DNA of 64,000 nt from an uncultured Planctomycetia bacterium (GTDB taxonomy: Bacteria; Omnitrophota; Gorgyraeia; Tantalellales; Tantalellaceae): NCBI GenBank assembly GCA_964431495.1, contig CAYSJU010000009.1:7205-71204 (forward strand), in the 5' to 3' direction. Shown piece by piece: positions 1 through 16,608 of the stretch. The notes under the pieces were generated by a model, which was not told where the DNA came from, made no database searches, and worked only from the letters and a program-made list of their open reading frames with translations. The translations under genes were made by a program, and so were the position numbers. How positions within the stretch are numbered: the stretch's first letter is position 1; each line of letters begins with the position of its first letter.

Positions 1-1317
1 GCGAGGAATGCCGGATTTGGTTTTATGCTTCTGGTTTCTGTCTTAACAGGGCTTGGCCTGTTGTCAGCGGCTCTGATCTTGAGAAATAAATTTCCTATTG
101 AAGTGATAGTCGGACTTTGCGCGCTTTCAGTTTATCTCGCACTCAGCAATGTATGCATTTTTTATCAGATCCTTTTAAGGACCAGGCATAATTTTTCCGT
201 GTTAAGCAAGTCCATAATATTTGAAGCCGTCATCAATCTTGTACTTGTAATTTTGCTTGTCAGGAATTTCAAGATATACGGTTTATACGCGGCCTTGATC
301 CTTGTCACTCTTCTTAATACTGTATTTATACATGCTCTCGCGAAATACAATTTTGTATTCCGTTTAAAATTTAGGAGGATCCTGAGCCTGGTAAAAGTGG
401 GTCTCCCGATAACAATAATAGGTTTCCTGCAATGGGGGTTGAACAGCCTGGATACAATAATGATAGCCAAGATGATAGGAGTGACGTTTGTGGGGTATTA
501 TAGCATACCCATTATGGCCAGAAGTTATATTGGACAGTTATCCGGTTTCGGGACCGTTCTTTATCCCAGGATATTAGAGGATTATGGCGCGAAACAGAGA
601 ATAGAGGACATTAAAAAATATACTATAGTTCCGCTGGCCATTAATGCTTATCTATTACCGGTAATATTAGGATTAATGTTTTTTGCAGCTGCGTTTATTG
701 TCCGGATAGTATTACCCAAATTCATACCTGGTATTTTAGCCATGCAGATCCTTCTTATCGGTATGTTTTTCCGCTCCTGTTCTTATCAGGCCGAACATTT
801 TTTGATCGCCCTGAATAAACAGACCAGGCTGATACCTGTTTTCTTAGGTGCTTTAGTATTGAATGCGGTCATGAATTATATTCTCATAAAAAGAGGTTTT
901 GGCATATATGGAGTAGCCTGCGCCACTTCGTTTGTTACGTTTTTGAACTTTATTGTGTTGCAAAGCTATGCGATGAGACATTTTTCCCGAACCAGGGAAA
1001 TCGCGTCATTTTTCGTCAAAATAATCGTTCCCTTTGTTTACACCGCCGCCATAGTGCTTTTTCTGCAAAAATTTCTGGTCATAAGCAATGAGTATATAGA
1101 AGTTACCGTTAAAAGCTGTTTGCTGGTGATATTTTCGCTGCCTTTATTTTTCTATATTAACAAGTCAACCCGGGTATTGAATTTGATACTTGATATGTTA
1201 ATAACAAAGTTCAATCGGACAGGGGTTAAGGACTTTTCGGATAAAAAAGATATTAACAGCGATCTTGGCGAACATGTGAAATCAGATAAGATCAAAGACA
1301 GGATAAAGGTGCTCTAA
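1..1317 (+). CDS. Wzx/MOP-type polysaccharide flippase, 5'-truncated by window edge
   Basis: Frame is open from nt 1 (first ATG at 25). About 12 hydrophobic helices. GLPITIIGFLQWGLNSLDTIMIAKMIG...VGYYS resembles the mid-protein motif of polysaccharide-biosynthesis (MOP) flippases but sits at about residue 125, so roughly 100 N-terminal aa seem to be missing. Confidence 0.6.
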   Translation, partial: ARNAGFGFMLLVSVLTGLGLLSAALILRNKFPIEVIVGLCALSVYLALSNVCIFYQILLRTRHNFSVLSKSIIFEAVINLVLVILLVRNFKIYGLYAALILVTLLNTVFIHALAKYNFVFRLKFRRILSLVKVGLPITIIGFLQWGLNSLDTIMIAKMIGVTFVGYYSIPIMARSYIGQLSGFGTVLYPRILEDYGAKQRIEDIKKYTIVPLAINAYLLPVILGLMFFAAAFIVRIVLPKFIPGILAMQILLIGMFFRSCSYQAEHFLIALNKQTRLIPVFLGALVLNAVMNYILIKRGFGIYGVACATSFVTFLNFIVLQSYAMRHFSRTREIASFFVKIIVPFVYTAAIVLFLQKFLVISNEYIEVTVKSCLLVIFSLPLFFYINKSTRVLNLILDMLITKFNRTGVKDFSDKKDINSDLGEHVKSDKIKDRIKVL

Positions 1318-1318
1318 A

Positions 1319-2056
1319 ATGAAATTTAAACCAGGATCGATCAAGAACAGGCTAAAGTCCTATGTGTGCGAGGCGATAAAAAAAATAAACATAATCCACA
1401 AGCTCGATTATGACAAGATCCCGATCTATTTACATGACAACATTCGATTGGCGTCATGCGCAAAGGAAGCCGATACCGTCAGGTGGATAGAGGGTTTCGG
1501 TAAAGATGATGTAGTTTTTGATATTGGCGCCAATGTCGGCGCTTATTCTTTGATAATGGCAAAATATGCCGGAAAGGTTTACGCTTTTGAGCCGTCGGTA
1601 TTTACTTTTAATACCCTGGTAAAGAATATCTATACGAATAAGGCCTTTAATATCGTCCCTTTGAATCTGGCGCTTTCACGGCGCAAAAAACTCGGAACAT
1701 TCTTATACTCTTCGACGGATCTTGGAAGTTCAAGTAATAGTTTCGATGGAGTTTCGGGGGGAGAGGCGTATAAACAAGAAATGCTTTCTTATAGTATAGA
1801 TGAGTTTATCGAATCCTTTGAAATAAGATCCCCCAATCACATTAAATTAGATGTCGATGGAATAGAGTTCGAGATCTTAAAGGGCGCTGCCAGGACCATT
1901 TCGGGGAAGACTTTTAAATCCTTGCTGGTGGAAGCTGGCGAGCAGGATGATCAGATGTTCTCCTATCTCGAAGATCTTGGCTTAAAAAGGACAGGCAAGT
2001 ATTACCTGGGAGACAGCAAGATACATAATTATCTTTTTACAAAAAAAACGAAATAG
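1319..2056 (+). CDS. FkbM-family SAM-dependent methyltransferase
   Basis: VFDIGANVGAYSLIMAKYAGKVYAFEPS is the typical FkbM-family glycine-rich SAM motif followed by FEP. Starts 2 nt after the flippase stop. Confidence 0.75.
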   Translation: MKFKPGSIKNRLKSYVCEAIKKINIIHKLDYDKIPIYLHDNIRLASCAKEADTVRWIEGFGKDDVVFDIGANVGAYSLIMAKYAGKVYAFEPSVFTFNTLVKNIYTNKAFNIVPLNLALSRRKKLGTFLYSSTDLGSSSNSFDGVSGGEAYKQEMLSYSIDEFIESFEIRSPNHIKLDVDGIEFEILKGAARTISGKTFKSLLVEAGEQDDQMFSYLEDLGLKRTGKYYLGDSKIHNYLFTKKTK

Positions 2057-2066
2057 ATACACAGGG

Positions 2067-3419
2067 ATGAGGGAAAAGAAAAAAATGGATCACGCCGAAT
2101 ACGACATTATTTTTTGGGCGCATGGACATAATGAAACAGAGCGGTTTCTGCCGCTTATTGTAAGCTTGAAAGAGAGGGGCATTAAAACATTGTTGTTTTA
2201 TCAGAATTATGATTTTCGGGATGGTTTATCTTGTGTCCAGCAGAAGATAGTCGGGAGGTACGGGCTCGACATCCTGGATTATTCATATTTTTTGAGAAAT
2301 GATCCGTTGTTAAGATTAACCACTTTGTTCGTTAAAATGTTCAGCCGCGCCCTCAAGGTGAAATTTCTTTATGACAAATTCAGGGGGTTGCGCACCAAGC
2401 TTTTACGGCCGCGTATTACGGAAAAATTCATCAGAAAAATCATTTTAGGGTTTGGCCAGAGAATAAGTTTCTTTGATAACCTTTATTTAACCGAGTACAC
2501 GGATTATCCTTATGGCAGTTATTATATCAAGAAGATTTCGGACGAATCCGGGATAAAATGCTTAAGCATTACTCATGGCGGGTCAGTGTACATAGGAAAG
2601 GTAAAAAATTGTAAAGAAGTTTTCGTGCATTTCGATAAGATCTACGTGCCGAATAGTTATGAAAAGGAATCATTTGAAGAACAGCGCAGATATCCCGGAG
2701 CCACCGAAGTCTTACCGCTGGGAGATCCGAGGTTTGATATCAAGTGGAAGAGTTCGATCAAAGAACTGTTTTCCGAAGAAGTCAGGAAAAAAATAGAAAA
2801 AATGAGATTCAAGAACGGTCTAAAGATACTATACCTGGCCCCTAATATCGAGGCGCGTGGAAAAGGGACATCAGATGCAACAAAATACCAAAGTTTGCGC
2901 GAAATAGCGAAGATATGCAGCTCGTCAGGTAATATCTCGTTACTGATAAAACCCCATCCCAGATACAGGAACGAAGGAAAGATCAGAAAGGTAATGGCGA
3001 AAGCCGGATTGAGGGATTTCTTTATTCTTGAAGACGACCCCCTGATCAGCTATCTGGATTACGTCGATTATATTATTTCTCCGGGAACAAGCGCGTTGGG
3101 GGATATTTTGCCCGAGGGGCACAGGAAGATCATTATTCTGGACACTTTTTTCCCGCCCGCGGGCGTGGAAAATATCTTCAAGGAACATTTCACGTATTTT
3201 GATTCTTATGAAGGAGTTGATGATTTCCTGAGGGGAAAGATCGCCGGCAACCGGGATATGGAGAATGAAACCGACAAGATCCTGCTTTTTTGCCGGAAAT
3301 GGATCGCCGCCGATAAAAGGCTGGATGCTATAATTAACAATCTTACGGACGATATCTGTAATGAAGTCGTCAAAAGCCAGGATGGGAGGCATGGACGGGA
3401 GAATGACGAAAGGGTTTAG
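2067..3419 (+). CDS. Putative GT-B-like transferase with HP motif (TagF / KpsS / sialyltransferase-like)
   Basis: 450 aa, soluble. LLIKPHPRYRN followed by a SPGTSALGD-type segment resembles the HP motif of cytidine-nucleotide-dependent GT-B transferases. No stronger motif recognised. Confidence 0.35.
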   Translation: MREKKKMDHAEYDIIFWAHGHNETERFLPLIVSLKERGIKTLLFYQNYDFRDGLSCVQQKIVGRYGLDILDYSYFLRNDPLLRLTTLFVKMFSRALKVKFLYDKFRGLRTKLLRPRITEKFIRKIILGFGQRISFFDNLYLTEYTDYPYGSYYIKKISDESGIKCLSITHGGSVYIGKVKNCKEVFVHFDKIYVPNSYEKESFEEQRRYPGATEVLPLGDPRFDIKWKSSIKELFSEEVRKKIEKMRFKNGLKILYLAPNIEARGKGTSDATKYQSLREIAKICSSSGNISLLIKPHPRYRNEGKIRKVMAKAGLRDFFILEDDPLISYLDYVDYIISPGTSALGDILPEGHRKIIILDTFFPPAGVENIFKEHFTYFDSYEGVDDFLRGKIAGNRDMENETDKILLFCRKWIAADKRLDAIINNLTDDICNEVVKSQDGRHGRENDERV

Positions 3420-4917
3420 AGTATTGCTTGTTTATCCTTCACTCTTCATGCAAACGGGTCTGCCCCTGGGGATCTCGTCCCTGGCAGCGGCGCTTAAGGA
3501 GAAGGGCATAGAGGTAAAGGTGTTTGATACCGTTTTTTACCAGCTTCCCGGTGATGTTGATGAAAATGTCGAACGGGCTACCGTGCATAGATCGTTCAAA
3601 CTTTTCGATTATAGATCCCTGGGCGTGGTCAAGAACGATTCAGACATGTTCGACGATTTCACAAAGACCCTGGCTGAATATGAGCCAGATCTTATAGGTT
3701 TGAGCTCGATGGAGTGCATTTTTGAGCGCGGGCTCAAATTGACAAGACTCGCGAAAGAACTGATGGATGTGCCGGTGATCGCGGGCGGTATTTTTGCTTC
3801 ATTGGCGCCCGAGGTGGTAATAGAAGAAGGTTCGATAGATATGGTCTGTATAGGAGAAGGCGAAGATGCGCTTGTTGAATTGTGTGAATGTCTGCGGGAT
3901 GGCAACGATCATTCGGGAATTAAAAGCTTATGGGTCAAGAAGAACGGCAAAGTCATGAAAAATGCGCTCGCTCGGCTAAGATCTCTCGATGAGGTGGTTA
4001 AGCCGGACTTTTCAGTCTTTGACCCCAGGATGTTTTACAAGCCGATGCAGGGAAACCTGTTTAAGACCATACCGATCGAGATCACAAGGGGTTGTCCATA
4101 CAGATGCACATATTGCGCGGCCCCGTCACTTAACAGACTGTACAAAAACAGCGGGAAGGACGGTTATTTCCGGGAAAAATCCATGTCCAATCTTTTTTCG
4201 GAAATAAAAGAGAGTATCGAAAAATATTCGCCCGAGTTCTTCTATTTCGCGAGTGAAACATTTTTGGCCATAAACAATGACACGTTCAATGAATTTATAG
4301 AACGCTATAAAGAGATAAAGGTCCCATTTTGGATACAGACACGCGTTGAGACCGTCACTTACGAGAGGATACGAAAGCTCCAGGATGTAGGGCTTTTCTG
4401 GTTGACCATTGGAGTGGAACATGGCAACGAGGGATACAGAAATAAATATTTGAAACGATATACAAAAAATGAAAAGACAATAGAGGTGGTTAAAATACTT
4501 GATAAGTGCGATCAGGGAGCTTCTCTGAACAATATCATAGGCCTCCCTTTTGAAACACGCGAGCTTATTTATGAGACGATCATGTTCAATCGAGAACTAT
4601 TCAAGATCAACGATCGCCTGAAAAGCAATGTATCCATATTTACCCCTTATAAAGGATGCGAATTATATGATCTGTGTGTTTCCAATAAATTGCTGGATCC
4701 CGTGCCTTATACGAATCATACAAATATAATCGGGGATCTGCCCCTTAAATCCGATCTGTTGACCCCGGAAGAGATCAACGGCCTTTTCAGGACTTTTAAT
4801 CTGTACGTATATCTGCCTGACGAATATCTTGATCGGATCCGATCAGCTGAAAGTTTTACGCCGGAAGGGAACAAAGAGTTTGAGTCTCTGAACGAGAAGG
4901 TCGGGGAGTATCTCTAA
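3403..4917 (+). CDS. B12-binding-domain radical SAM enzyme (class B)
   Basis: N-terminal FRVLLVYPS...LGISSLAAALKEKGIEVKVFD is B12-binding-domain-like. ITRGCPYRCTYCAAP is a CxxxCxxC cluster. Start is uncertain: in-frame ATGs at 3361, 3382, 3391 and 3403. Confidence 0.85.
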   Translation: MTKGFRVLLVYPSLFMQTGLPLGISSLAAALKEKGIEVKVFDTVFYQLPGDVDENVERATVHRSFKLFDYRSLGVVKNDSDMFDDFTKTLAEYEPDLIGLSSMECIFERGLKLTRLAKELMDVPVIAGGIFASLAPEVVIEEGSIDMVCIGEGEDALVELCECLRDGNDHSGIKSLWVKKNGKVMKNALARLRSLDEVVKPDFSVFDPRMFYKPMQGNLFKTIPIEITRGCPYRCTYCAAPSLNRLYKNSGKDGYFREKSMSNLFSEIKESIEKYSPEFFYFASETFLAINNDTFNEFIERYKEIKVPFWIQTRVETVTYERIRKLQDVGLFWLTIGVEHGNEGYRNKYLKRYTKNEKTIEVVKILDKCDQGASLNNIIGLPFETRELIYETIMFNRELFKINDRLKSNVSIFTPYKGCELYDLCVSNKLLDPVPYTNHTNIIGDLPLKSDLLTPEEINGLFRTFNLYVYLPDEYLDRIRSAESFTPEGNKEFESLNEKVGEYL

Positions 4918-4935
4918 TGAAGACGGAGGTTTACG

Positions 4936-5700
4936 ATGATCTGTAGCTTAGTATTGGGGAGAAAAGGAAGTGTAGGTTTTCCGGGGAAGAATCTTTTCCC
5001 GGTATTAGGCAGGCCCCTGGCATATTATCCCATAGTGGCTGCCAGAGAAGCAGAAACGGTTGATGAGGTCTATCTTTCCACGGATTCGGGAGAGCTTATG
5101 GCACTGGCTGAAAAAGAGGGAGTAAACGTAATAAAACGGCCGGTGAAACTCTGCACGGACCAGGCAACCGGGCTTGATGCCTTTGTACATGGTTATAATG
5201 TGATAAAGGAACTGCACAAGGACGGTGAAATAGAGTTCATGCTTTTAATGTTTTGTAACGCTCCTACAGTAATACCCGCGGCCATTAATGAAGGAATAAA
5301 GGTGCTGAGAGCGAATCCCGATTACGATTCGGCTGTTACTGTCTCTAAATATAACATGTGGAGTCCTTTAAGGGCGCGGCGGATAGAAGAAAACGGGTTA
5401 TTGCGGCCATTTGTCCCGTTTGAGACCTTCGGTGATCCAAAGAAGATGAACTGTAACCGTGATTCTCAGGGGGATGTGTGGTTCGCTGACGTGGCTTTGT
5501 CCATAGTAAGACCGCGATGCCTTGAAAATATCGAAAACGGCCTACTGCCGCAGAAGTGGATGGGGCAGAAGATCCATCCTCTTAAACAATGGGGAGGATG
5601 CGACGTGGATTATGAGTGGCAGGTGCCGCTTGTGGAATATTGGCTTAGAAAACACGGCTTCACGGAAGATACTACCCCTTATACGGAGGGATCATTGTGA
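4936..5700 (+). CDS. NeuA-type (CMP-nonulosonate/ulosonate) cytidylyltransferase
   Basis: N-terminal LGRKGSVGFPGKNL matches the acylneuraminate cytidylyltransferase family P-loop (xRxGSKGxPxKN). Length 254 aa. Confidence 0.75.
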   Translation: MICSLVLGRKGSVGFPGKNLFPVLGRPLAYYPIVAAREAETVDEVYLSTDSGELMALAEKEGVNVIKRPVKLCTDQATGLDAFVHGYNVIKELHKDGEIEFMLLMFCNAPTVIPAAINEGIKVLRANPDYDSAVTVSKYNMWSPLRARRIEENGLLRPFVPFETFGDPKKMNCNRDSQGDVWFADVALSIVRPRCLENIENGLLPQKWMGQKIHPLKQWGGCDVDYEWQVPLVEYWLRKHGFTEDTTPYTEGSL

Positions 5701-6680
5701 CGGAAGTAAAGCCGGACGCAAATTTTCATTCATTAGGAGGAGTTTCCGTTCATGACGGGAGGTCGGAAGAGTACGGGGAGTATAGAAGATGCTGGTCGGA
5801 ATACCCGTCAAATTTCATTTTAAGAGATTTCCCGATGCACCTGGACATTGAAATAACGAACCATTGTAATTTAAAGTGCACTTTTTGCGATAGACAGCCG
5901 TTTTTGGATAAAAATAAAACAGGGAACATGGATCTGTCATTATATAAAAAGATAATCGACGAAGGCGCGGAACATCGGTTGTGGGGGGTGAAGCTCAGTT
6001 ATAGAGGGGAGCCTTTGCTCAATAAAAACATTATGGAGATGATCTTATATGCTAAACGTAAAGGTATCATGGATGTATATTTTAATACCAATGGGATGTT
6101 GCTAAGCGAGGAAATGAGCAGAGAGATCATTGATGCCGGCTTGGACAGGATCTCTATATCAGTGGAAGGGACGGATCCGGATCTATACGAAAAAATGAGG
6201 ATCAATGCGAAATTTGACACTGTTCTTAAAAATGTCAATAGGTTGATGGAGTTAAGAGAAAAGATGAAAATCGGCCATCCAAAGATCAGGGTGCAGTCCG
6301 TGAATTACTCCGGTTTTGATATTGAAGATTACAGACACTTTTGGCTGGACTACTGTGACGAAGTGGCAATGCTGGATTTTACCGATATGTCAACGCGTGA
6401 CAGCGGACTGATCCGCGACTGGGCTTGTCCGCAATTGTGGCAGCGTATGACGATTGAATGGGACGGCACGGTTTTCCCCTGCAATAACGATGACCTGCGG
6501 CTTATTTCCCCGGGAAACGTAAATAACAGAACTGTTCATGAGTGCTGGCATGATGGCATGGTAAGTAATGTCCGCGTTTTGCATCAAAATGGCCGTTCTC
6601 ACGAGATCAAGGATTGCGATGGTTGTCCCTGGAGGACGGCTCAAATCAAGAAAAAGGAGATATCGGGTGAAGAACTTTGA
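5697..6680 (+). CDS. Radical SAM enzyme with SPASM/twitch-like C-terminal Cys cluster
   Basis: EITNHCNLKCTFCDRQ (CxxxCxxC). C-terminal CPQLWQRMTIEWDGTVFPCNND and CDGCPW. GTG start in a GTGA overlap with the upstream stop. Confidence 0.8.
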   Translation: MTEVKPDANFHSLGGVSVHDGRSEEYGEYRRCWSEYPSNFILRDFPMHLDIEITNHCNLKCTFCDRQPFLDKNKTGNMDLSLYKKIIDEGAEHRLWGVKLSYRGEPLLNKNIMEMILYAKRKGIMDVYFNTNGMLLSEEMSREIIDAGLDRISISVEGTDPDLYEKMRINAKFDTVLKNVNRLMELREKMKIGHPKIRVQSVNYSGFDIEDYRHFWLDYCDEVAMLDFTDMSTRDSGLIRDWACPQLWQRMTIEWDGTVFPCNNDDLRLISPGNVNNRTVHECWHDGMVSNVRVLHQNGRSHEIKDCDGCPWRTAQIKKKEISGEEL

Positions 6681-6684
6681 TCTG

Positions 6685-7668
6685 ATGCGTCCGGAAAAGG
6701 CATATAAAGAGGTTCTTAAACAAAGGGAACTTGACGGGAAAGCATTTTTTGAGAAATATAACAGCCATTTTGCCGATGTTCTTTGTCCGGCCTGCGGCAG
6801 TAAAGGCGCGGATATTTTTGAGAAATACGGGTTCAAGCACGACCTTTGCGAGAATTGTAAAACACTGTTCTGTTCCCCCAGACCTCCGGAGGAGTTGCTG
6901 GCGGTGTATTATAATAGTTATGAAGCGCCTAAAATGTGGACGTCTCTTTTGATCAGAGCTGATGTTGAGAGGAAGATCCTGCAGTATGAACCGCGTGTAA
7001 GAAAAATAGTTTCGGCCGTTAAAGCCCGCGGCGGGGAGAATGGCGGTATAGCCCTGGATCTAGGCGCCGGGTCCGGAGCCTTTTCCCTTTGTCTTAAAAA
7101 TACGGGATTTTTCAAGGATGTGATCGCGCTGGATTTTTCAGAATCCTGTGTTCGGGCCTGCATGGACCGGGGTCTGAATTCATTGCTGGGCGGGATAGAG
7201 AAAATAAGCGGCAATTCGGTGGATCTAATATGCATGAATGATCTTATCGAACACGTATTTGATCCGTTCTCTTTGTTGAAAGAATGTTTCAGGGTTTTGT
7301 GCGATGATGGATTCATCTCCGTTGCGACACCTAATGGAGAGGGCTTTGATTTTAAGATCCTCAAGAATAGAACGGGGAATATCACCCCGCCGGAACATCT
7401 TAATTATTTCAACCCGTATTCTTTAGAGCTTATCTTGACAAATGCCGGATTCCGCACGGTCTTTCTTGAGACTCCCGGTAAATTGGACGTAGAGATCATC
7501 TTGAAAGAGAAGATCTCCGGATTTCCGTTAAAAGAGAACAATGAATACATGGACCATATATTGGAGCAGGACGAAGGGGTTTTAGATAATTTCCAGAAGT
7601 TTCTTTCGGAAAATAAATTATCAAGCCATATGCTTGCTTTGGCCCAGAAGAGCGGAGGCCGGTTATGA
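6685..7668 (+). CDS. Class I SAM-dependent methyltransferase with N-terminal Zn-ribbon
   Basis: CPACGS...CENCKTLFCSP (4 Cys), then ALDLGAGSGAFSL and DLICMNDLIEHVFDP (Methyltransf_11/23-like). The ORF track starts at 6568 but that overlaps the upstream gene. ATG 6685 or GTG 6667 is more likely. Confidence 0.75.
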   Translation: MRPEKAYKEVLKQRELDGKAFFEKYNSHFADVLCPACGSKGADIFEKYGFKHDLCENCKTLFCSPRPPEELLAVYYNSYEAPKMWTSLLIRADVERKILQYEPRVRKIVSAVKARGGENGGIALDLGAGSGAFSLCLKNTGFFKDVIALDFSESCVRACMDRGLNSLLGGIEKISGNSVDLICMNDLIEHVFDPFSLLKECFRVLCDDGFISVATPNGEGFDFKILKNRTGNITPPEHLNYFNPYSLELILTNAGFRTVFLETPGKLDVEIILKEKISGFPLKENNEYMDHILEQDEGVLDNFQKFLSENKLSSHMLALAQKSGGRL

Positions 7669-8759: not shown

Positions 8760-9511
8760 ACAGAAACATTAAATATAAGTCAAAGGAACTGCTGGAGATC
8801 TATAAGCACGACAGACAGAAGTGGGATGAATTCTATCCGTCGGAGCGATGGGTGTTTGAGAAAATAGGAGGGAATAACAGGGTTCTGGGAGATGTCCTGG
8901 ACGTAGGGTGCGCCTGTGGAGGGCTGGGGATCGCGCTAACTCAAGAGTTCATACTGAATTCATATACAGGGGTTGATATTAATGAAGATGCTGTTATCTG
9001 GGCGCGTAAGGAACGGAAGTTACCCGTATCGGCAACGTTCATAGCGCGGGATATCATTGAATTGCATCCATGTGAACAATATGATACGGTTGTTTCTTTA
9101 AGTTGCGCCGACTGGAACGTGGAGACCGGCAGGATGATAGATGCCTGCTGGAAAAGGGTAAGGAGCGGCGGGTATTTCGTGCTCTCGTTGAGGCTTTCTC
9201 CCGTGAAAGGGATAAATAACACAAAAATGAGTTATCAGCGTATCAGTATACCGGGGAGCGAAAAGGGGTCAGAGGTCGCCAACTATGTGGTTTTTGGTTT
9301 CAAGGAAGCCATGGAAATGATGGGGAAATTATCTCCATTACCGGATTCAGTGGGGGCCTATGGATACTGGGGAAGGCCTTCCCCCTCAGCCTTTACGCCT
9401 TTTGAAAGACTTGTTTTCGCGGTTTTTTACATCAAGAAGGGATCGAATGATCCGGATAGCGCCAAAGAAATGAAAACCGAGTTCAATTTCCCGCTGGATA
9501 TTTTTCTATAA
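8756..9511 (+). CDS. Class I SAM-dependent methyltransferase
   Basis: VLDVGCACGGLG motif I. ATGA overlap with the upstream gene. Confidence 0.7.
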   Translation: MNRNIKYKSKELLEIYKHDRQKWDEFYPSERWVFEKIGGNNRVLGDVLDVGCACGGLGIALTQEFILNSYTGVDINEDAVIWARKERKLPVSATFIARDIIELHPCEQYDTVVSLSCADWNVETGRMIDACWKRVRSGGYFVLSLRLSPVKGINNTKMSYQRISIPGSEKGSEVANYVVFGFKEAMEMMGKLSPLPDSVGAYGYWGRPSPSAFTPFERLVFAVFYIKKGSNDPDSAKEMKTEFNFPLDIFL

Positions 9512-9534: not shown

Positions 9535-10461
9535 ATGAAGATATTGGTCACAACAAGTTCGTTTGCTCGTCATGACCCGGCGCCTCTGGATCTATTGACG
9601 CGGAAGGGATACGAGGTGGTTTTAAATCCGTTTCACAGGACGTTGACGAAAGAAGAGGCCATGAGGATCTACGGGGATGATATAGACGGCGTCATCGCCG
9701 GGACCGAGATCATCGATAAGGATGTTTTGTCAAATGCCGGACGGCTGAAAGTTGTTTCTCGTTGCGGCACGGGGATGGATAATGTAGATGTCGATTTTGC
9801 TGAAGCTAATGGCATAAAAGTCTTCAATACCGCTGATGCGCCAACCGACGCGGTGGCGGAATTAGCCGTAGGGTTAATGTTGTCTTTATTACGGGGCATT
9901 CCGGCGGCAGACCGTCGGGTTCGCAATGGGATCTGGAAGAAGAATATGGGGAGTCTCCTGTGTGAAAAAACAGTTGGCATAGTGGGTTTGGGACGTATCG
10001 GAAAAAAGACGGCCTTGTTACTTAAAAACTTAGGCGCCCGGATAGTTTATTACGATCCCGGGGCGGGCAGCAAAAGCGCCGAAGGTTTTGTGGAATCGAG
10101 TATGGAAGGGCTTCTGAAAGAGGCGGATATCGTAAGTTTACACATGTCTTACTCAAAAGAGAATCGAAATCTCTTTGACGTAAAAGAGTTTTCTTTGATG
10201 AAAAAAACCGCCTTTCTCGTAAATGTTTCGCGCGGCGGCATAGTCAATGAGCAGGCTCTTTGCAGGGCTTTAAAGGAAGAAAGAATAGCCGGCGCCGCTT
10301 TTGATGTTTTCGGGAAGGAGCCATACGAAGGGCCGTTGAGGGAACTGGACAATGTTATTCTAACCCCGCATATTGGCTCGTACGCTAAAGAGGCAAGGAT
10401 AAAAATGGAGACGAAGGCATCAGAGAATGTACTGAAAGGATTGACGAAAAAAACAGAGTGA
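9535..10461 (+). CDS. D-isomer-specific 2-hydroxyacid dehydrogenase (SerA/PGDH-like)
   Basis: GIVGLGRIGKKTA NAD-binding motif, VNVSRGGIV, and LTPHIGS catalytic His context. Confidence 0.85.
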   Translation: MKILVTTSSFARHDPAPLDLLTRKGYEVVLNPFHRTLTKEEAMRIYGDDIDGVIAGTEIIDKDVLSNAGRLKVVSRCGTGMDNVDVDFAEANGIKVFNTADAPTDAVAELAVGLMLSLLRGIPAADRRVRNGIWKKNMGSLLCEKTVGIVGLGRIGKKTALLLKNLGARIVYYDPGAGSKSAEGFVESSMEGLLKEADIVSLHMSYSKENRNLFDVKEFSLMKKTAFLVNVSRGGIVNEQALCRALKEERIAGAAFDVFGKEPYEGPLRELDNVILTPHIGSYAKEARIKMETKASENVLKGLTKKTE

Positions 10462-10486
10462 TATTTTTTCCAGGAGGTGTTGTTGA

Positions 10487-12064
10487 GTGAAGGTCCTATT
10501 GATTTCTATCGATCTGGTCCTGGGGGCAAGGATTTTGGTGAATGTATTGAAAGAGAAGGATGTTGAGGCGAAGAATCTCCAGATCGTCGGGGTGAGATAT
10601 TCAGACCCTTTTTCGGAAGATGCCTTGCGGGACATCTATGAATTCAGCAGGGGATATGATGTTGTAGGATTGTCTTTCAATTCATTTTATTCGGTGTTGG
10701 CGGCTCGACTGGGAAAATATTTGAAATCCAGGGGAGTGAAATGGCTTATCGCCGGCGGCACTCACGTGACCGCCATGCCCGAAGAGGTTATGTCCTACGC
10801 GGATATGGCTGTTATTTATGAGGCAGAATTGACTTTACCGAGAGTTTTGAAAAACCTGGATTCACCCGGTTCATTGCGCGATATAGGCGGGATCGTTTTT
10901 AAGGACGGGAATGGACAGATCATCAGAACGGGTAACCCTCAGATCGAGCTTGATCTTGACAACATTCCATTCCAGAGTATCTCAAATGAAGACATAACCT
11001 ACTATAATGTACGGAACAATACTTTCGAGGAACCGACGGTCGATACTTTCTTTCCGCACGGCCACAGGAATTATTATGTCCTTACTTCAAGAGGTTGCCC
11101 GTTCAAGTGCACTTATTGTTCCAGCAGCTTTTTTGCGAAACTCGCCGAAGGTTCCCAAAAAGTGAGAAAAAGGTCTGTTGATAATATCATTTCGGAGATG
11201 AAAACAGCCAAGCAGGCGGGCTTCGAAGCGTTTTATATAGCGGATGATAATTTTTTATCCTTTACCCTTAAAGAGATCGAGAACTTTCTGGAACTGTATG
11301 GATCACAAATAAATTTGCCTTTTAGCGCCGGCGGCCTGAATCCGAACAATATGAGGGCGAAGGATTCGTCTAAAAAGATAGAGATACTTTTGAAGTGTGG
11401 ATTGTCGGATGTGAGAATAGGGGTGCAGAGCGGAAGCGATCGAACATTGAAAATTTTTAATAGAAGCTATACCGCCGAAGAGGTCCCTGAATTACTGAAA
11501 ATTTTTGAAAACCGCAAAACGATCTGGAAAGAACCCAATGATAAATTAAGAATAGCTGTTGATTTTATTTGTGACTCACCCTGGGAGGATGAAAGGGATA
11601 AATTAGACACACTGGGATTGGCGAATAATTTATTATCCACGTACGGGGTGTTTTTCAACACGCTGATCTATCTGCCGGCAACAGATATCTACAATTTAGC
11701 TTTAAAAGAGGGGTGGATCAAAGACAAGGAAAAAGATATATATCTAAGGGGCATAGGCGGGCTTGAAGATAATATATATAACCGTTTGCTGTATCTCATA
11801 GCTGTTCTCAAGGAACGCGGCGGCAAAATGCCCGATAAAATGATATCGCATATCTTGGATCTACACAAAAAGGATCCGGATCTGGCAGAAACACTCGTAG
11901 ACTTTATTATGAGAACCATAAACGATGTTGAAGACCACCATGGTTTTAATGCAAGCCATTTAACGTTACATCCTTACTTGAAAGGTTTTAAAACGTGGGA
12001 AAAGACCGTCGGGCAAAAAGGGAAAAAGGTTTTGTTTAGAAGTTACCACGAGTCATATGGTTAA
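10487..12064 (+). CDS. B12-binding-domain radical SAM enzyme (class B)
   Basis: GTG start 9 nt after AGGAGG. LTSRGCPFKCTYCSS. N-terminal Rossmann-like B12-binding segment (VVGLSF...LIAGGTH). Confidence 0.85.
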   Translation: MKVLLISIDLVLGARILVNVLKEKDVEAKNLQIVGVRYSDPFSEDALRDIYEFSRGYDVVGLSFNSFYSVLAARLGKYLKSRGVKWLIAGGTHVTAMPEEVMSYADMAVIYEAELTLPRVLKNLDSPGSLRDIGGIVFKDGNGQIIRTGNPQIELDLDNIPFQSISNEDITYYNVRNNTFEEPTVDTFFPHGHRNYYVLTSRGCPFKCTYCSSSFFAKLAEGSQKVRKRSVDNIISEMKTAKQAGFEAFYIADDNFLSFTLKEIENFLELYGSQINLPFSAGGLNPNNMRAKDSSKKIEILLKCGLSDVRIGVQSGSDRTLKIFNRSYTAEEVPELLKIFENRKTIWKEPNDKLRIAVDFICDSPWEDERDKLDTLGLANNLLSTYGVFFNTLIYLPATDIYNLALKEGWIKDKEKDIYLRGIGGLEDNIYNRLLYLIAVLKERGGKMPDKMISHILDLHKKDPDLAETLVDFIMRTINDVEDHHGFNASHLTLHPYLKGFKTWEKTVGQKGKKVLFRSYHESYG

Positions 12065-12082
12065 CGGACAGGGACAGGATCG

Positions 12083-12757
12083 ATGCGTGATTATAAAATA
12101 AAGTATCTTTCGCATATGTTAGAAAAAAAAGTGCCGGTTTACGGGAACAAAAAGGCTTCTTTGGAGATTAGTCCTGATAAATCTCTTGACAGAGGAGATT
12201 CCTGCAATACTTTCAGGTTTTCCATGCAAAATCACTGGGGAACACACATCGATGCGCCCGCGCATTTTTTTAAGGGCGCGAAGAAAGTATCGGATTATAC
12301 GGCCGGCAACTGGTTATTTAAGGAACCATGCGTGATCGAGCTGCCTTTACAAAAAGGCAGGGCGATAAGGCTGGATGAGGTAAGTGCGGAAATAAAGAAA
12401 TGTCATGACCTTTTGCTGTTAAAAACAGGGTTCGGACGCTATAGGGGCTCAAGAACTTACAGTTTCAAAGGTCCTTCGGTAAGTCCTGAGGTAGGGCTTT
12501 GGTTAAGGAGCGAAAGACCCAATATTCGGGCGATAGGGTTTGATTTCATATCTATCGGGTCATATCGGGACAGGGAAGAGGGCAGGCGAACGCACAGGGT
12601 TTTCTTGGACCCCGGGCAGAAAGGCTGCCCGGTCTTGATCATCGAGGACATGAAACTATCTTACGACCTGTCCAGGTTGAAGACGGCCTGGGTGGCGCCG
12701 TTGCTGATAGATCGGATAGACAGTTCTCCATGTACGGTGTTTGGTGTATTTGATTAA
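12083..12757 (+). CDS. Cyclase-family protein (kynurenine-formamidase-like metal amidohydrolase)
   Basis: HWGTHIDAPAHF matches the HxGTHxDxPxH motif of the putative cyclase family. Confidence 0.7.
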   Translation: MRDYKIKYLSHMLEKKVPVYGNKKASLEISPDKSLDRGDSCNTFRFSMQNHWGTHIDAPAHFFKGAKKVSDYTAGNWLFKEPCVIELPLQKGRAIRLDEVSAEIKKCHDLLLLKTGFGRYRGSRTYSFKGPSVSPEVGLWLRSERPNIRAIGFDFISIGSYRDREEGRRTHRVFLDPGQKGCPVLIIEDMKLSYDLSRLKTAWVAPLLIDRIDSSPCTVFGVFD

Positions 12758-12779
12758 AGACAATTTAAGAGGTGAAAAA

Positions 12780-13670
12780 ATGAAGAAAGTCATAATTTTT
12801 GGCGGTTCAGGTTTCATCGGCAGCCATGTCGCCGATGTTCTTACAGAAGAAGGGTTTGAAGTACGCATTTTTGATTTAAAGAAAAGCCCGTATTTGTCCG
12901 AGAAGCAGAGGTTTATCAAGGGTGATATACTTGACAGGAACAAAGTACAAGAGGCTGTTGCTGGGAACGATATTGTCTATAATTTCGCGGGACAATCTGA
13001 TATAGACGCCGCAATGAACGAGCCTCTGGATACCGTATCCACCAATATCATAGGGAATACCAATATACTGGAAGCATGCCGTAGACACGGGATAAAAAGG
13101 TTTATCTTCGCGAGCACAATATATGTCTACAGTGATACGGGATCTTTTTACAAGTCAAGCAAGCAGTCCTGCGAGCTTATTATAGAGGATTACCAGAAAC
13201 AGTTCGGTCTCGATTTCACCATTCTTAGATACGGCAGCCTTTACGGGCCGAGGTCGGATGGAAGAAATTGGATACACTCGATATTAAGACAGGCCCTCGA
13301 TCAGAAAAAGATAACAAGGAAGGGGGATGGTGAAGAAATAAGGGAATACGTGCATGTGCACGATGCAGCGAAGTTGAGCGTCAAGATATTAGATGGCGGA
13401 TATAAGAATCAACACGTAATGGTAACGGGGAACCAGCAGACGCGCATCAAGGATCTAATGATAATGATCAAGGAGATTTTAAATAATAAGGTGGATCTGG
13501 AGTTCGTTGATATCGGAAAAGATCTGCATTATGAGATAACGCCTTATAATTTCAGCCCTAAGTTGGCGAAAAAGATAGTGGGCGATCATTATATAGATCT
13601 TGGACAGGGGATACTGGACACCCTGAATCACATCTATAAAAAGAATACGGTTCATGGTAACAGGCTTTAG
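12780..13670 (+). CDS. NAD-dependent epimerase/dehydratase (extended SDR)
   Basis: MKKVIIFGGSGFIGSHV (GxxGxxG), YKSSK catalytic YxxxK. GAGGTG RBS before ATG 12780 (ORF track start 12741 is unlikely). Confidence 0.85.
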   Translation: MKKVIIFGGSGFIGSHVADVLTEEGFEVRIFDLKKSPYLSEKQRFIKGDILDRNKVQEAVAGNDIVYNFAGQSDIDAAMNEPLDTVSTNIIGNTNILEACRRHGIKRFIFASTIYVYSDTGSFYKSSKQSCELIIEDYQKQFGLDFTILRYGSLYGPRSDGRNWIHSILRQALDQKKITRKGDGEEIREYVHVHDAAKLSVKILDGGYKNQHVMVTGNQQTRIKDLMIMIKEILNNKVDLEFVDIGKDLHYEITPYNFSPKLAKKIVGDHYIDLGQGILDTLNHIYKKNTVHGNRL

Positions 13671-13681
13671 GGGGTTTCAAT

Positions 13682-14335
13682 ATGATACGAGCTTTGATTT
13701 TTGATTTTGACGGCGTTATAGCGGAATCCGTTGATGTGAAGACGGAAGCGTTCAGGGAGCTTTTTAAAGACTATCCTGATAGTGCTGACGCCATAGAGAA
13801 ATTCCATTTAGACAACGGTGGGATGTCCCGATACGATAAGTTCAGGCACATATACGCCAATATCCTGAAGCAGGAGCTGCCGGGGGAGAGGTTTAGCGAA
13901 CTCTGCGGATCTTTCCATAAGCTGGTTGTTGATAAGGTAGTCGAAGCTCCGTTTGTGGAAGGATGCATTGAGGTGCTGGATCTTTGTTCCGGGAAATATC
14001 CCATGTATATCGTTTCAGGGACTCCGGAAGGCGAGATGAAAGAAATAGTAAAACGGCGGGCGCTTGAGGGATATTTTCTCGAGATTTACGGTTCGCCGGA
14101 CAGTAAAACCAGATCAATAAGAAAGATCCTGGTTGATAACGGGTTCAAACCGGAAGAAGTTTTGTTCATAGGCGATTCAAAAAACGATCTTCAGGCCGCC
14201 GAAGAGACGGGTGTAATATTTATCGCCAGGGCGGTGGATGAAGAAGAGGACTGGCTTAGATCCGAAAGCGTGAAGACCTCTTTTCCGGATCTCAGGGGGG
14301 TGGAAGATTATATTGAGACGCATAACCATATTTAA
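13682..14335 (+). CDS. HAD-superfamily phosphatase (PGP/beta-PGM-like subfamily IA)
   Basis: LIFDFDGVIAES (DxDG motif I), VSGT, GDSKNDLQAA (motif IV). Confidence 0.8.
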   Translation: MIRALIFDFDGVIAESVDVKTEAFRELFKDYPDSADAIEKFHLDNGGMSRYDKFRHIYANILKQELPGERFSELCGSFHKLVVDKVVEAPFVEGCIEVLDLCSGKYPMYIVSGTPEGEMKEIVKRRALEGYFLEIYGSPDSKTRSIRKILVDNGFKPEEVLFIGDSKNDLQAAEETGVIFIARAVDEEEDWLRSESVKTSFPDLRGVEDYIETHNHI

Positions 14336-14389
14336 AAGGAAAGCTGCCGATATAAGGCGAGCAGGGAGTAAAACAGCTTTAGGAAGATC

Positions 14390-15811
14390 ATGTTTATTAT
14401 GCCCAGGTCTCAGGGGAGATATGGTAAGCCGAGTTCGCCACCGGTCGGGATAGCGTACCTGGCGACTTTTCTTAAAGCCCGGGGACATGAAGTCGGGGTA
14501 ATGGATCTAAGGGTAGAGAAAAAAGGATACGATCACATTTCCGCGATAAAGGCTTTTGGCCCGGAAACCGTGGGTGTGAGTTTCATGAGCAACGGGTACA
14601 AAGAGAGTTACACCCTTATTGATGAAATAAAGACAAAACTCGGAGTGACGGTTATTATCGGGGGAGCGCATCCTTCCACTTTAAGGGAAAAGGTCCTGGA
14701 GGAGTGCGGAGCCGATTACGCTGTTTATGGAGAGGGAGAATTCACCATGTTAGAGTTTTTGGAACAGAAAGCTCCCCCCGAAATAAAAGGACTGGTATGG
14801 CGCGACGGGGAAAATATCGTGGTAAACCCACCGCGTGAACCGTTGCTTGACCTTGATTCTTTGCCTTTTCCCGACCATGGGATGTTTAAACTTGACCGGT
14901 ATGGCCGGAAGAGGATCTCATTGAATACTTCCCGGGGGTGCCCGCATTTATGCACGTATTGCGCGGTCGATCTGGTTATCGGCAGAAGGTTCAGGGCGCG
15001 CAGCCCGGAGAACGTCGTGGACGAGATAGAATACTGGTACCGGAGGGGATACAGGAATTTTGGTTTTAATGACAGCACTTTTACCGAGGACATGAAACGG
15101 GCGGGCAGGATAGCGGAAGAACTGATAAGGCGGAATATTGAAATAGAATGGGATCTCAGGACGGGTATAAGGGTCGACAGGGTTAATAAAGAGCTGTTGC
15201 GCAAATTGAAGCAGGCGGGATGTAATTTTATAGCATTCGGGATAGAATCAATAGACCCGGAAGTTATTCAGTTAATGCGTAAGAAGACCACGTTTGAAAT
15301 GGCAGAGAAAGCCGTCCGGGACGCAAGAGCAAGTGGATTGGGTGTCGGCGGTTTTTTTATGATCGGGACGCCGGGTGATACATACAAAAAATTCAAAAAG
15401 ACTTACGATTTCGCTGACCAGGAAATATTCGATGAGGTAAGGTTCTATAATACAGAACCTTATCCCGGGACCGCCATCTATGAATGGATCAGGGCAAACG
15501 GCAGATTTCTTGCCGAGCCGGAAGAGTATCTTAATTCGCGGTCAAGATGGGACGAAGAACCCATATTTGAAACTGATCGTTTTGCCGCCAGAGAGAGAAA
15601 GAAGGCGTTTAACGAAGGTGAATTTCTCGTGGCCAAGAAACTGGCAATAAAGGTCCTCGGCAGGAAACTGGGGGTTTTTGTCTATTCCCCCTGCAGAAAC
15701 AGGATGATCAGGAAGGTTGTCCTCTTTATGGGGTTCAGGATGGCCCCCTTGATCTTCAAGTTTATGTCGTTGAAGAATAATTCATCAGCACCAAAGGAAA
15801 GTATCGGATGA
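14390..15811 (+). CDS. B12-binding-domain radical SAM enzyme (class B)
   Basis: PVGIAYLATFLKARGHEVGVMDL...IIGGAHPS, then NTSRGCPHLCTYCAV. Confidence 0.85.
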   Translation: MFIMPRSQGRYGKPSSPPVGIAYLATFLKARGHEVGVMDLRVEKKGYDHISAIKAFGPETVGVSFMSNGYKESYTLIDEIKTKLGVTVIIGGAHPSTLREKVLEECGADYAVYGEGEFTMLEFLEQKAPPEIKGLVWRDGENIVVNPPREPLLDLDSLPFPDHGMFKLDRYGRKRISLNTSRGCPHLCTYCAVDLVIGRRFRARSPENVVDEIEYWYRRGYRNFGFNDSTFTEDMKRAGRIAEELIRRNIEIEWDLRTGIRVDRVNKELLRKLKQAGCNFIAFGIESIDPEVIQLMRKKTTFEMAEKAVRDARASGLGVGGFFMIGTPGDTYKKFKKTYDFADQEIFDEVRFYNTEPYPGTAIYEWIRANGRFLAEPEEYLNSRSRWDEEPIFETDRFAARERKKAFNEGEFLVAKKLAIKVLGRKLGVFVYSPCRNRMIRKVVLFMGFRMAPLIFKFMSLKNNSSAPKESIG

Positions 15812-16608
15812 ACATGGATCATATTGAAAAGATGAACAGGGAGACAAAAGAGGCCTGGGATGAGAACTGGAAGGATATAAAAATAGAGACCATCCTCGAG
15901 ATGTTCGGATATCCGAGAGTGGAAAAGTTCCTGAACATCTTTACTCCTTATCTACCGGAGAACGGGCGCATACTGGAAGCCGGCTGCGGCTTGGGGCCAT
16001 GGGTCATAAAGCTGGGCGCGCTTGGGTATAAGATGGTCGGAATAGACTACCAGCAGGCCTGTATAGACAAGATCAAGGCATATGATAATGGGCAGGAGGT
16101 ATATACAGCCGATGTGTCGAATATTCCGTTTGAAGATAACAGTTTCGAGGCTTATCTGTCCTGGGGGGTCATAGAACATTTCGCTGAAGGGCCTGATAAA
16201 GCCCTTGAAGAAGCTCACAGGGTGTTAAAAGATGAGGGACGGCTGCTGCTCACGGTCCCGTATAAAAATATATTCAGGAGGATAAAGGAACCCTTTGATC
16301 ATGTAAAGCGCAACCCGTTCATTCGCAGGATACTCAATAAACCTCCGAAGGTATATTATTACCAGAAATTTTTCAGGGTCAGGGAACTCGAAGAAGTAAT
16401 ATCAAGGAGCGGCTTTCATGTAGAAAAGATCATACCCGTGGACCAGATATTCGGTCTTGTTGAATTTTCGAGCCTGTTCCGGGACAAGAACAGCCTGGAC
16501 GGGGAGAATAAATTTGCTGTTTTCGGGGGCAATATTCTGGAGAAAATATTGCCCTGGGCAAGCGCGGGTTCTACCTTTGTGGTGGCCCGCAAAAAGAGAA
16601 AAAAATAA
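15808..16608 (+). CDS. Class I SAM-dependent methyltransferase
   Basis: ILEAGCGLGPW, GVIEHFAEG, LKDEGRLLLTVP. ATGA overlap with the upstream gene. Confidence 0.75.
   Translation: MNMDHIEKMNRETKEAWDENWKDIKIETILEMFGYPRVEKFLNIFTPYLPENGRILEAGCGLGPWVIKLGALGYKMVGIDYQQACIDKIKAYDNGQEVYTADVSNIPFEDNSFEAYLSWGVIEHFAEGPDKALEEAHRVLKDEGRLLLTVPYKNIFRRIKEPFDHVKRNPFIRRILNKPPKVYYYQKFFRVRELEEVISRSGFHVEKIIPVDQIFGLVEFSSLFRDKNSLDGENKFAVFGGNILEKILPWASAGSTFVVARKKRKK

Follow-up and report, generated by a model that had tools for sequence, protein, structure and literature searches.

This locus raises the question of what product would call for four radical S-adenosylmethionine (SAM) enzymes, four SAM methyltransferases and a cytidylyltransferase within a single run of surface-glycan genes. 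The window, by which we mean the whole stretch of 64,000 nucleotides analysed (contig CAYSJU010000009.1 of an uncultured bacterium of the Omnitrophota), opens with 16 consecutive open reading frames (ORFs), g01 to g16, which occupy positions 1-16608 of the + strand, are separated by gaps of -59 to +54 nucleotides and, judged from this packing, appear to form one operon-like, tightly packed unit. Every ORF of this consecutive, overlapping or tightly packed series lies where a sequence-only reading of the DNA had placed it, and profile searches with Pfam and NCBIfam (20 genes by NCBIfam; 59 window genes scanned in all) confirmed the enzyme class assigned to each. Our preferred answer, in which our confidence is evenly divided, is that the block makes, tailors and transfers a second acidic (2-ulosonic, sialic-acid-like) sugar activated by cytidine monophosphate (CMP), distinct from the legionaminic-type nonulosonic acid (NulO) encoded directly upstream, for the lipopolysaccharide (LPS) or O-antigen. 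The extensively C-, O- and N-methylated, possibly CMP-activated sugar acid that the sequence-only reading had suggested holds up as the best reading of the block, with the subfamily of cytidylyltransferase g05 occurring elsewhere in fusion with domains of glycosyltransferase (GT) family 29 and with domains like 3-phosphoglycerate dehydrogenase (PGDH).

The distribution of the genes across phyla supports this reading. The radical SAM enzyme g06 has more than 1000 close homologues that are 55-65% identical across phyla, and a scan of species-representative genomes yielded 79 loci, in which co-occurrence was assessed by tblastn with all window proteins and by all-versus-all clustering of locus ORFs. 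The main count concerns 27 orthologous loci from more than 10 phyla, each with at least 7 kb on both flanks; 17 loci around g06 paralogues of about 30% identity, mostly from Nitrospinota, served as the control. The NeuA-like cytidylyltransferase g05 (4936..5700; this and all further gene coordinates refer to the + strand) is present in 27/27 core loci, the extended short-chain dehydrogenase/reductase (SDR) g13 (12741..13670) in 24/27, and both the short D-3-phosphoglycerate-dehydrogenase-like 2-hydroxyacid dehydrogenase g10 (9535..10461) and the phosphatase g14 (13682..14335), a member of haloacid dehalogenase subfamily IA (HAD-IA), in 22/27, so that g10, g13 and g14 each occur in 81-89% of the loci. 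The cyclase-family metal-dependent hydrolase g12 (12083..12757) reaches 11/27 core loci in the tblastn count; clustering put the number of loci at 17. In the paralogue-control loci, g05, g10, g14, g12 and the aminotransferase g08 were all found in 0/17. Of the fetched loci, 47 contain both a g05 orthologue and a g06-like gene, in 40 cases side by side. Carriers include Omnitrophota, Desulfobacterota, Syntrophus, Lachnospiraceae, Ruminococcus, Elusimicrobiota, Nitrospirota, Planctomycetota, bacteria of the candidate phyla radiation (CPR; L029 and L031), a Campylobacterota metagenome-assembled genome (MAG) labelled Helicobacter cetorum (L035) and the archaeal Methanomicrobiales (L039, L040 and L043, Methanomicrobiales/Methanoregula); the bacterial and methanogen versions of the g05/g06 core share 43-63% identity, which implies that the module has moved horizontally between domains. 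The sequence-only reading had allowed that the genes might stand together by chance; synteny in relatives, co-occurrence across phyla and the empty paralogue control show that they are co-conserved. To judge by sequence, g05, g06, g10, g12, g13 and g14 form a core module that is widespread in the surface-glycan loci of many phyla, and only the extra B12-dependent radical SAM enzymes and the methyltransferases are lineage-specific additions to it.

The chemical identity of the product is best approached through g05, a CTP_transf_3 protein whose closest relatives in the PDB are the NeuA CMP-sialate synthetases (E 1e-12). It falls far below the PseF, NeuA and KdsB cut-offs (for PseF, 72 bits against a cut-off of 206) and belongs to the NeuA/KdsB family at family level only, because every equivalog cut-off is missed. 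An exhaustive search of 1.84 billion representatives returned 9028 hits, and because so few of these (103/9028) reach E <= 1e-30, we treat g05 as the type of a discrete subfamily. Its members are 51-66% identical across the 27 loci, with 61-64% identity between the window, a Lachnospiraceae isolate and Methanoregula; with the NulO-type CTP_transf_3 protein encoded upstream of the block (u3), g05 shares about 26-33% identity, over partial alignments of 85-161 residues. Several members of the subfamily are fused to other enzymes. Three (P0327, P0330 and P0390) join CTP_transf_3 to a 2-Hacid_dh domain, and the C-terminal half of P0327 shares 43% identity with g10 along the full length of g10; g10 is therefore tied directly to the cytidylyltransferase step. 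Two more (P0318 and P0365) join CTP_transf_3 to Glyco_transf_29, the sialyltransferase family GT29, while P0264 carries the start of an aminotransferase and P0265 a methyltransferase. About 20 full-length copies of the dehydrogenase fusion were found in a scan of metagenomes (loci L090-L105), adjoining g06-like genes, and these loci also hold either a true g05 orthologue with FabG, g13 and g14, or a HisC-like gene with a g04-like B12 enzyme. Several of them contain the fusion in addition to a separate true g05 orthologue and so have two cytidylyltransferase-like domains per module. To judge by the fusions, the g05 subfamily probably makes a sialic-acid-like glycosyl donor linked to CMP.

The constant companion of g05, and usually its direct neighbour, is g06 (5697..6680; PF04055 + PF13186), a radical SAM protein with a twitch/SPASM domain and an intact CxxxCxxC motif (CNLKCTFC). 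Its top sequence match in the PDB is BtrN (profile E 7e-17), with a pairwise alignment that spans both the core and the auxiliary domain, and BtrN is also the top fold match of its AF2 model (pLDDT 83; Foldseek E 7e-14, TMt 0.72), at only about 18% identity in the structural alignment. The residues C244, C262, C307 and C310 are invariant in 21 homologues, and C262, C307 and C310 align with the auxiliary domain of BtrN. This arrangement, a CxxxCxxC cluster with four cysteines predicted to hold a single auxiliary [4Fe-4S] cluster in a short C-terminal domain, is the twitch-type pattern. The sugar-acting radical SAM enzymes BlsE and DesII are also among the matches of g06. Two other assignments were considered and set aside: a viperin-like role in defence (at 42 bits g06 stays below the viperin cut-off of 180, BtrN is the better match and the context is a glycan locus), and maturation of a ribosomally synthesized and post-translationally modified peptide (RiPP), against which speak the lack of a precursor or PqqD-like gene and the sugar-type enzymes nearby. 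Elsewhere in the window, a second radical SAM/SPASM gene (40998-41984, +) is surrounded by GT9 heptosyltransferase and GT2 genes in the LPS core region and encodes a paralogue of g06 at 26% identity, about as distant as the Nitrospinota control paralogues.

What g06 might do is suggested by the gene that accompanies it. In the window this is g08 (7665..8759; Aminotran_1_2), a HisC-like class I/II aminotransferase dependent on pyridoxal phosphate, with an intact SKAFG lysine motif and scores of 237 bits against the hisC model (cut-off 277) and 130 bits against CobD. Genes of this kind occur in 12/27 core loci, and a FabG-like SDR that is absent from the window occurs in 17/27: 15 loci have FabG only, 10 have HisC only, 2 have both and 0 have neither, an exclusivity with a Fisher p of 8e-6, uncorrected for phylogeny. 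A FabG-like or HisC-like gene lies no more than 1.5 kb from the g05-g06 pair in 34/47 loci. From its likeness to BtrN and from this either/or choice between an aminotransferase and a ketoreductase, we infer that g06 may act as a secondary-alcohol dehydrogenase.

The remaining core enzymes are g10, g12, g13 and g14. g10 (2-Hacid_dh and 2-Hacid_dh_C) scores 249 bits against the PGDH model TIGR01327 across the catalytic part, and its closest PDB relative is the short Pyrococcus PGDH 1wwk (E 1e-58). g13 (PF01370, 167 bits), which is like GalE and the 4,6-dehydratases and whose closest PDB relatives are GalE-type epimerases, retains its GGSGFIG and YKSSK motifs and likely starts at the ATG at 12780; it also has a weak NCBIfam match to Azf-type glucose-6-phosphate dehydrogenase. 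g12 (PF04199, 75 bits) keeps the motif HWGTHIDAPAH and has weak matches to metal hydrolases and kynurenine formamidase, and g14 (HAD_2; TIGR01549 above cut-off) is a phosphoglycolate-phosphatase-like enzyme with an intact DFDGV motif. Arranged as a pathway, g13, g12, g10 and g14 would start from a phosphorylated sugar or aldonic acid and arrive at a free 2-keto (ulosonic) acid. In the first step, g13 may oxidize C1 to a lactone, an assignment that draws solely on the weak Azf-type match. The lactone would be opened by g12, g10 would create the 2-keto function and g14 would take off the phosphate, leaving an acid that g05 would couple to CMP. In the manner of BtrN, g06 would oxidize a secondary alcohol to a ketone with neither NAD nor O2, and this ketone would be transaminated to an amine by g08 here and reduced by the FabG-like enzyme in other lineages. 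The class I methyltransferases g02, g07, g09 and g16 would methylate nitrogen and oxygen atoms, the B12-dependent radical SAM enzymes g04, g11 and g15 would methylate unactivated carbons, and g03 would move the finished product from CMP onto the growing glycan. Taken singly, each of these steps is tentative and rather doubtful.

The additions to the core are dominated by the three B12-binding radical SAM enzymes, g04 (3361..4917; CPYRCTYC), g11 (10487..12064; CPFKCTYC) and g15 (14390..15811; CPHLCTYC), in which an N-terminal B12-binding domain (PF02310) precedes a radical SAM core (PF04055) with its CxxxCxxC motif intact, the domain make-up of class B enzymes. They are mutually only 24-28% identical, and their best NCBIfam matches (BchE, HpnJ, MJ_1487, ladderane-type and AprD4), which include non-methylases, lie far below cut-offs; for g15 these are HpnJ and the ladderane-type model. 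Carbon methylation by the three enzymes is a prediction from domain composition; ring contraction, cyclisation and dehydration are other chemistries of B12 radical SAM proteins. g04-like genes occur in 10/27 core loci and g15-like genes in 5/27, while g11 was found in 1/27. Among relatives in the Omnitrophota, g04 is 80% identical in L085, 63% in L089 and 40% in L088, an orthologue of g11 was seen only in L085 (79-80% identity), and no close orthologue of g15 stands at the matching position in L085. The four methyltransferases are the FkbM-family enzyme g02 (1319..2056; PF05050; TIGR01444 96 bits, above cut-off; 3/27 core loci); g07 (6667..7668, its start set from a gene call on L001; Methyltransf_23/11; 6/27), a class I enzyme with an N-terminal Cys4 zinc ribbon (CPACGS...CENCKTLFC); and the class I enzymes g09 (8756..9511; Methyltransf_25/12/11; 5/27, at 39-65% identity) and g16 (15808..16608; Methyltransf_11/23; 1/27), the last being 47-53% identical in L088 and L089, where it precedes a GT2-GT4 pair. 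The sequence-only reading had likened the whole to a natural-product tailoring cluster grafted onto an LPS pathway. The analysis does not support this: only the extra B12 enzymes and methyltransferases are lineage-specific, the core is itself a widespread surface-glycan module, and no scaffold-forming enzyme (polyketide synthase, non-ribosomal peptide synthetase, RiPP precursor, cyclitol synthase or terpene synthase) was found among the 59 window genes scanned.

The frame in which the block sits also bears on the product. At its start lies g01 (1..1317, with the Pfam match in ORF 25-1317; Polysacc_synt_3, 32 bits), a Wzx-type flippase gene whose 5' end is cut by the left edge of the window and which is 55-73% identical in the relatives L085, L088 and L089. 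In all three the flippase precedes g03 (2067..3419; PF04464, a partial match of 22.2 bits against a cut-off of 22.1; 1/27 core loci), a putative transferase with a weak likeness to TagF. The AF2 model of g03 has a GT-B fold (pLDDT 85, pTM 0.87), its motif K-P-H-P-R-Y-R is invariant, and its Foldseek matches are GT-B glycosyltransferases, TagF, a capsule polymerase and a polysialyltransferase, with UDP-GlcNAc 2-epimerases scoring equally; 23 homologues were found, and those with names are all from Omnitrophota. In L085 (80% identity in g06) the gene order of g01-g14 is conserved, with GT2 and GT4 genes coming next, and L087, whose g06 is about 70% identical, keeps g05, g06, g07, g08, g10, g13, g12 and g14 and has no B12 enzyme. 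L088 and L089 have the same frame as the window, with NulO genes, a CTP_transf_3 gene, a LIC12162-like protein, the flippase, g03 and then a variable cassette. Here the slot after g03 (11284-18419 in L088 and 11320-20703 in L089) is without g05, g06 and g08 and contains an HpcH/HpaI class II aldolase, a CTP_transf_3 protein of a third subfamily (21-25% identical to g05), a 2-Hacid_dh dehydrogenase and a phosphatase, to which L088 adds SIS sugar-phosphate isomerase, GFO_IDH_MocA and Inositol_P domains and L089 adds orthologues of g04, g10, g12, g13, g14 and g16. An isomerase, an aldolase, a phosphatase and a cytidylyltransferase would together follow the logic of 3-deoxy-D-manno-octulosonic acid (Kdo) synthesis. 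Cassettes for a second CMP-activated acid thus look interchangeable among the Omnitrophota; since the alternative cassettes are Kdo-like and occupy the same slot, the cassette of the window should, by position, also yield a CMP-activated ulosonic-type acid that is transferred by g03.

The genes on the other side of the flippase lead to the first of the rival explanations. Contig L004 matches the window at 99.9% identity across 12 kb (window position 1319 is L004 position 6654) and reaches 5.3 kb further upstream, where, over 1-6652, it encodes the C-terminus of a NeuB-like protein, a hydrolysing-type UDP-GlcNAc 2-epimerase (Epimerase_2), a CBS+NTP-transferase protein, a first CTP_transf_3 protein, a 618-aa TagF/LIC12162-like protein and the complete flippase (5087-6652, 521 aa). 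The CBS+NTP-transferase protein is PtmE-like and a hallmark of the legionaminic acid route, and the region directly upstream is a legionaminic-acid-type NulO cassette with its own cytidylyltransferase and transferase. The sequence-only reading had placed the block at the head of a giant glycan locus; because the NulO cassette directly precedes it, and the window itself begins inside the flippase gene, this placement has to be given up. With two such sets of genes side by side, the block might tailor the upstream NulO instead of making an acid of its own: g10, g08 and g14 would provide a serine- or glycerate-derived N-acyl side chain, the radical SAM enzymes and methyltransferases would modify the CMP-NulO, with g05 as a second CMP-NulO synthetase, specific for the derivative. 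The order of genes fits, as the block directly trails the NeuB, Epimerase_2, PtmE-like, CTP_transf_3 and LIC12162-like genes and the same is seen in L088 and L089; within 10 kb, u3-like CTP_transf_3 genes occur in 7/27 loci and NeuB-like ORFs in 6 clustered loci, in both cases a minority. C10 'higher-carbon' CMP-ulosonic acids without assigned genes have, moreover, been detected by mass spectrometry in environmental bacteria (SugarBase preprint, bioRxiv 10.64898/2026.04.20.719630), and C-methylation of a NulO by B12 radical SAM enzymes would give such acids. Yet NulO genes are missing within 10 kb of most core loci, Gram-positive and archaeal ones included, the cytidylyltransferases of the module are a highly conserved subfamily of their own, distant from u3, and the block contains no acyl-activating enzyme (ATP-grasp, acyl-CoA ligase or acyl carrier protein), so that we consider tailoring of the upstream NulO unlikely.

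A non-carbohydrate product deserves attention as well, in the form of a phosphodiester-linked substituent such as an N-methylated phosphoserine, serinol or amino-alcohol, resembling the phospho-N-methylthreonine on the flagellin of Clostridioides difficile or decorations of the teichoic acid type. Such a compound would be made by the SerA/SerC/SerB-like trio g10, g08 and g14, activated with CTP by g05 and passed on by phospho-transfer through the TagF-like g03. That g10 is most like a true 3-PGDH, that g08 is in the HisC/CobD family, whose substrates carry phosphate, and that a HAD phosphatase is present are all in keeping with this, as are the matches of both g03 and the upstream 618-aa protein to PF04464 (TagF) at cut-off and the appearance of TagF among the fold matches of g03. 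The wider set of loci points the other way: a FabG-like reductase replaces the aminotransferase in over half of the core loci while g10 and g14 are kept, and g05 is of the NeuA/KdsB type, which activates the hydroxyls of keto acids, not of the TagD/LicC type that makes CDP-alcohols. Fusions of g05-like domains to GT29 sialyltransferase domains would be hard to accommodate, the strictly adjacent BtrN-like radical SAM enzyme and the extended SDR would have no role, and a phosphatase would destroy the phospho-donor, all of which makes a phosphodiester product quite improbable in our judgement. Finally, the notion that unrelated tailoring genes have gathered as a mosaic in a hypervariable glycan locus, with no single product or pathway logic, would suit the rarity or absence of g02, g03, g07, g09, g11, g15 and g16 in cross-phylum loci and a GC content of 0.40-0.47 in the block against about 0.50 among the housekeeping genes, the kind of drop seen in exchanged glycan islands, but it is very hard to credit and already largely refuted by the synteny of 14 genes in L085, the presence of the core in 81-100% of the 27 loci and 0/17 control loci, and the fusion proteins that link two core functions.

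Our preferred reading, a second CMP-activated sialic-acid-like sugar made by the block itself, has weak points of its own, and we acknowledge that the following observations count against it. None of the 20 genes reaches a pathway-specific NCBIfam equivalog cut-off, only the generic FkbM and HAD-IA models being passed. Domain scans of g01-g16 revealed no C-C-forming synthase of the NeuB, KdsA or HpcH type, and the window as a whole gave no NeuB-like or HpcH-like match, the NeuB upstream belonging to the first NulO cassette; because the block is without a C-C-forming synthase, the route to the carbon skeleton is conjecture. Synthesis by an aldolase was considered and rejected, as HpcH/HpaI aldolases are found only in the alternative cassettes of L088 and L089, with none in the window or in any g06 locus. 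The usual substrates of HisC-like enzymes are keto acids or phospho-ketones rather than sugars, and g08 shares only about 30-37% identity with its HisC-like counterparts in other loci. The likeness of g10 to 3-PGDH fits a C3 (serine or glycerate) branch at least as well as it fits the oxidation of an aldonic acid. The TM-scores of g03, at about 0.5, are those of a generic GT-B protein and do not separate glycosyl transfer from phospho transfer, and the co-occurrence statistics are uncorrected for phylogeny.

A bolder reading, which we consider possible rather than probable, is that g05, g06, g10, g12, g13 and g14 would constitute a NeuB/KdsA-independent, oxygen-independent route, based on radical SAM chemistry, to new CMP-activated sialic-acid-like sugars, spread horizontally across bacteria and methanogenic archaea, to which attached B12 radical SAM enzymes (three here) would add by extending or branching the carbon skeleton, thus supplying the missing genes for the C10 CMP-ulosonic acids. 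Ulosonic acids, among them sialic, legionaminic and pseudaminic acids and Kdo, cap microbial surfaces and affect recognition by phages, by the immune system and between cells. To our knowledge, all characterised routes to them use a condensation of the NeuB/KdsA type. A dedicated cytidylyltransferase combined with a BtrN-like radical SAM enzyme and a PGDH-like dehydrogenase, in the absence of such a synthase, would therefore represent a new biosynthetic logic for this class of sugars, and the three B12 radical SAM enzymes of one glycan operon are concrete candidates for the C10 acids seen by mass spectrometry. Gut Lachnospiraceae, sulfate reducers, CPR bacteria and methanogens all include carriers of the module, and its presence in cultured isolates, among them Lachnospiraceae MGBC000131 and MGBC000137 (L019 and L023) and Salidesulfovibrio brasiliensis JCM 12178 (L047), makes it experimentally approachable. 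The sequence-only reading had left room for a known pathway behind these genes, and none came to light: no characterised pathway was matched at an NCBIfam equivalog cut-off, and literature searches across 8.3 million full texts returned no description of this gene set, with the SugarBase preprint as the only relevant lead. The module is real, widespread and uncharacterised, and it is elaborated here with three B12 radical SAM enzymes and four methyltransferases.

Beyond the block, the window continues as an LPS/O-antigen region from 16.4 to 48.4 kb, with GT2 and GT4 enzymes, a WbaP-like initiating transferase, a Wzy_C/WaaL protein, three GT9 heptosyltransferases, three GT-C enzymes like PMT and ArnT and the second radical SAM/SPASM enzyme noted above; housekeeping genes fill the stretch from 48.4 kb to the end of the window. 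For the phosphoglycerate kinase encoded in the window, every close homologue that carries a name (75-85% identity) comes from Candidatus Omnitrophota. By domain scans, the first genes after the block are the frame pair of an ArnC/AglJ-like GT2 and a GT4 (16457..18814, +). In Omnitrophota relatives this pair closes the cassette slot, trailing the cassette in L085 and L088, where the GT2 is 62-65% identical. The ArnC/AglJ-like GT2 (of the polyprenyl-phosphate sugar synthase type), the three GT-C proteins and an MprF-like transmembrane protein (LPG_synthase_TM), encoded at 16457-21889, 30141-31493 and 45210-46595 (+), suggest a periplasmic, lipid-carrier-dependent decoration of LPS besides its cytoplasmic assembly. 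At 22855-24594 (+) lies a 579-aa fusion of a class I methyltransferase and a polysaccharide deacetylase, followed by a GDP-mannose-dehydratase-like SDR, a hexapeptide acyltransferase and a WecB-type 2-epimerase. All called genes of the window lie on the + strand, the GC skew is positive in all 2-kb windows of 1-64000, and the GC content, at 0.40-0.47 across the block, rises to about 0.50 where the housekeeping genes lie. Terminator-like sites (21 found, 19.1 expected from shuffles) show no enrichment, and scans for promoters, terminators, tRNAs and tandem repeats gave no informative result.

Several known systems resemble the block in part. Among them are the pathways to CMP-ulosonic acids, that is, CMP-Kdo (KdsD/KdsA/KdsC/KdsB) and the CMP-NulOs (NeuB/NeuA, LegI/LegF and PseI/PseF), with which it shares a CTP_transf_3 cytidylyltransferase, a phosphatase, a location in an LPS/O-antigen locus next to a GT-B transferase with an HP motif, and, through the fusions of the g05 subfamily in other organisms, a connection to GT29. 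It differs from them in having no NeuB, KdsA or aldolase-type synthase, in a cytidylyltransferase that forms its own subfamily, in a phosphatase of the HAD-IA and not the KdsC/NANP type, and in a module whose obligatory partners are a radical SAM enzyme and a PGDH-like dehydrogenase. The SerA-SerC-SerB pathway likewise brings together a PGDH-like dehydrogenase, an aminotransferase and a HAD phosphatase; in the block, however, g08 is a HisC-like class I/II enzyme and not a class V enzyme like SerC, g14 is of HAD-IA and not of SerB type, the aminotransferase gives way to a FabG-like reductase in most loci of the module, and the dehydrogenase occurs fused to a cytidylyltransferase. As for transfer, g03 is like the TagF-like polymerases, the bacterial polysialyltransferases and the LIC12162 family, which are GT-B proteins with an HP motif that use CMP- or CDP-donors, in its fold, its weak PF04464 match, its invariant PHP(R) and the cytidylyltransferase nearby, and is set apart from them by its low TM-scores, which epimerases equal, and by its few homologues, the named ones all from Omnitrophota. 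Its assignment as a TagF CDP-glycerol glycerophosphotransferase was rejected, given a partial match barely at the cut-off and the fact that the only cytidylyltransferase in the block is of the NeuA type.

The tailoring enzymes, in turn, recall antibiotic biosynthesis. g06 is like BtrN, which acts with BtrS in the route to the 2-deoxystreptamine aminoglycosides, in sequence, in fold and in its four-cysteine auxiliary pattern, and it too has an aminotransferase or ketoreductase nearby. Its partner here, however, is a HisC-like class I/II enzyme and not a sugar aminotransferase of the DegT/BtrS type, the context is a surface glycan with CMP activation and not an aminocyclitol antibiotic, and the activity of g06 is a prediction. 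Class B cobalamin-dependent radical SAM methyltransferases that act on sugars and other small molecules include GenK, GenD1, Fom3 and TokK. With this class g04, g11 and g15 share the B12 domain and the CxxxCxxC core, and they differ in reaching no family cut-off and in occurring as three divergent copies in a glycan operon. Taken together, these comparisons suggest that the block may act like a cassette for a CMP-ulosonic acid that has been combined with tailoring in the style of the aminoglycosides, in which oxidation and transamination of the BtrN/BtrS kind would be joined to B12-dependent methylation of the GenK/Fom3 type.

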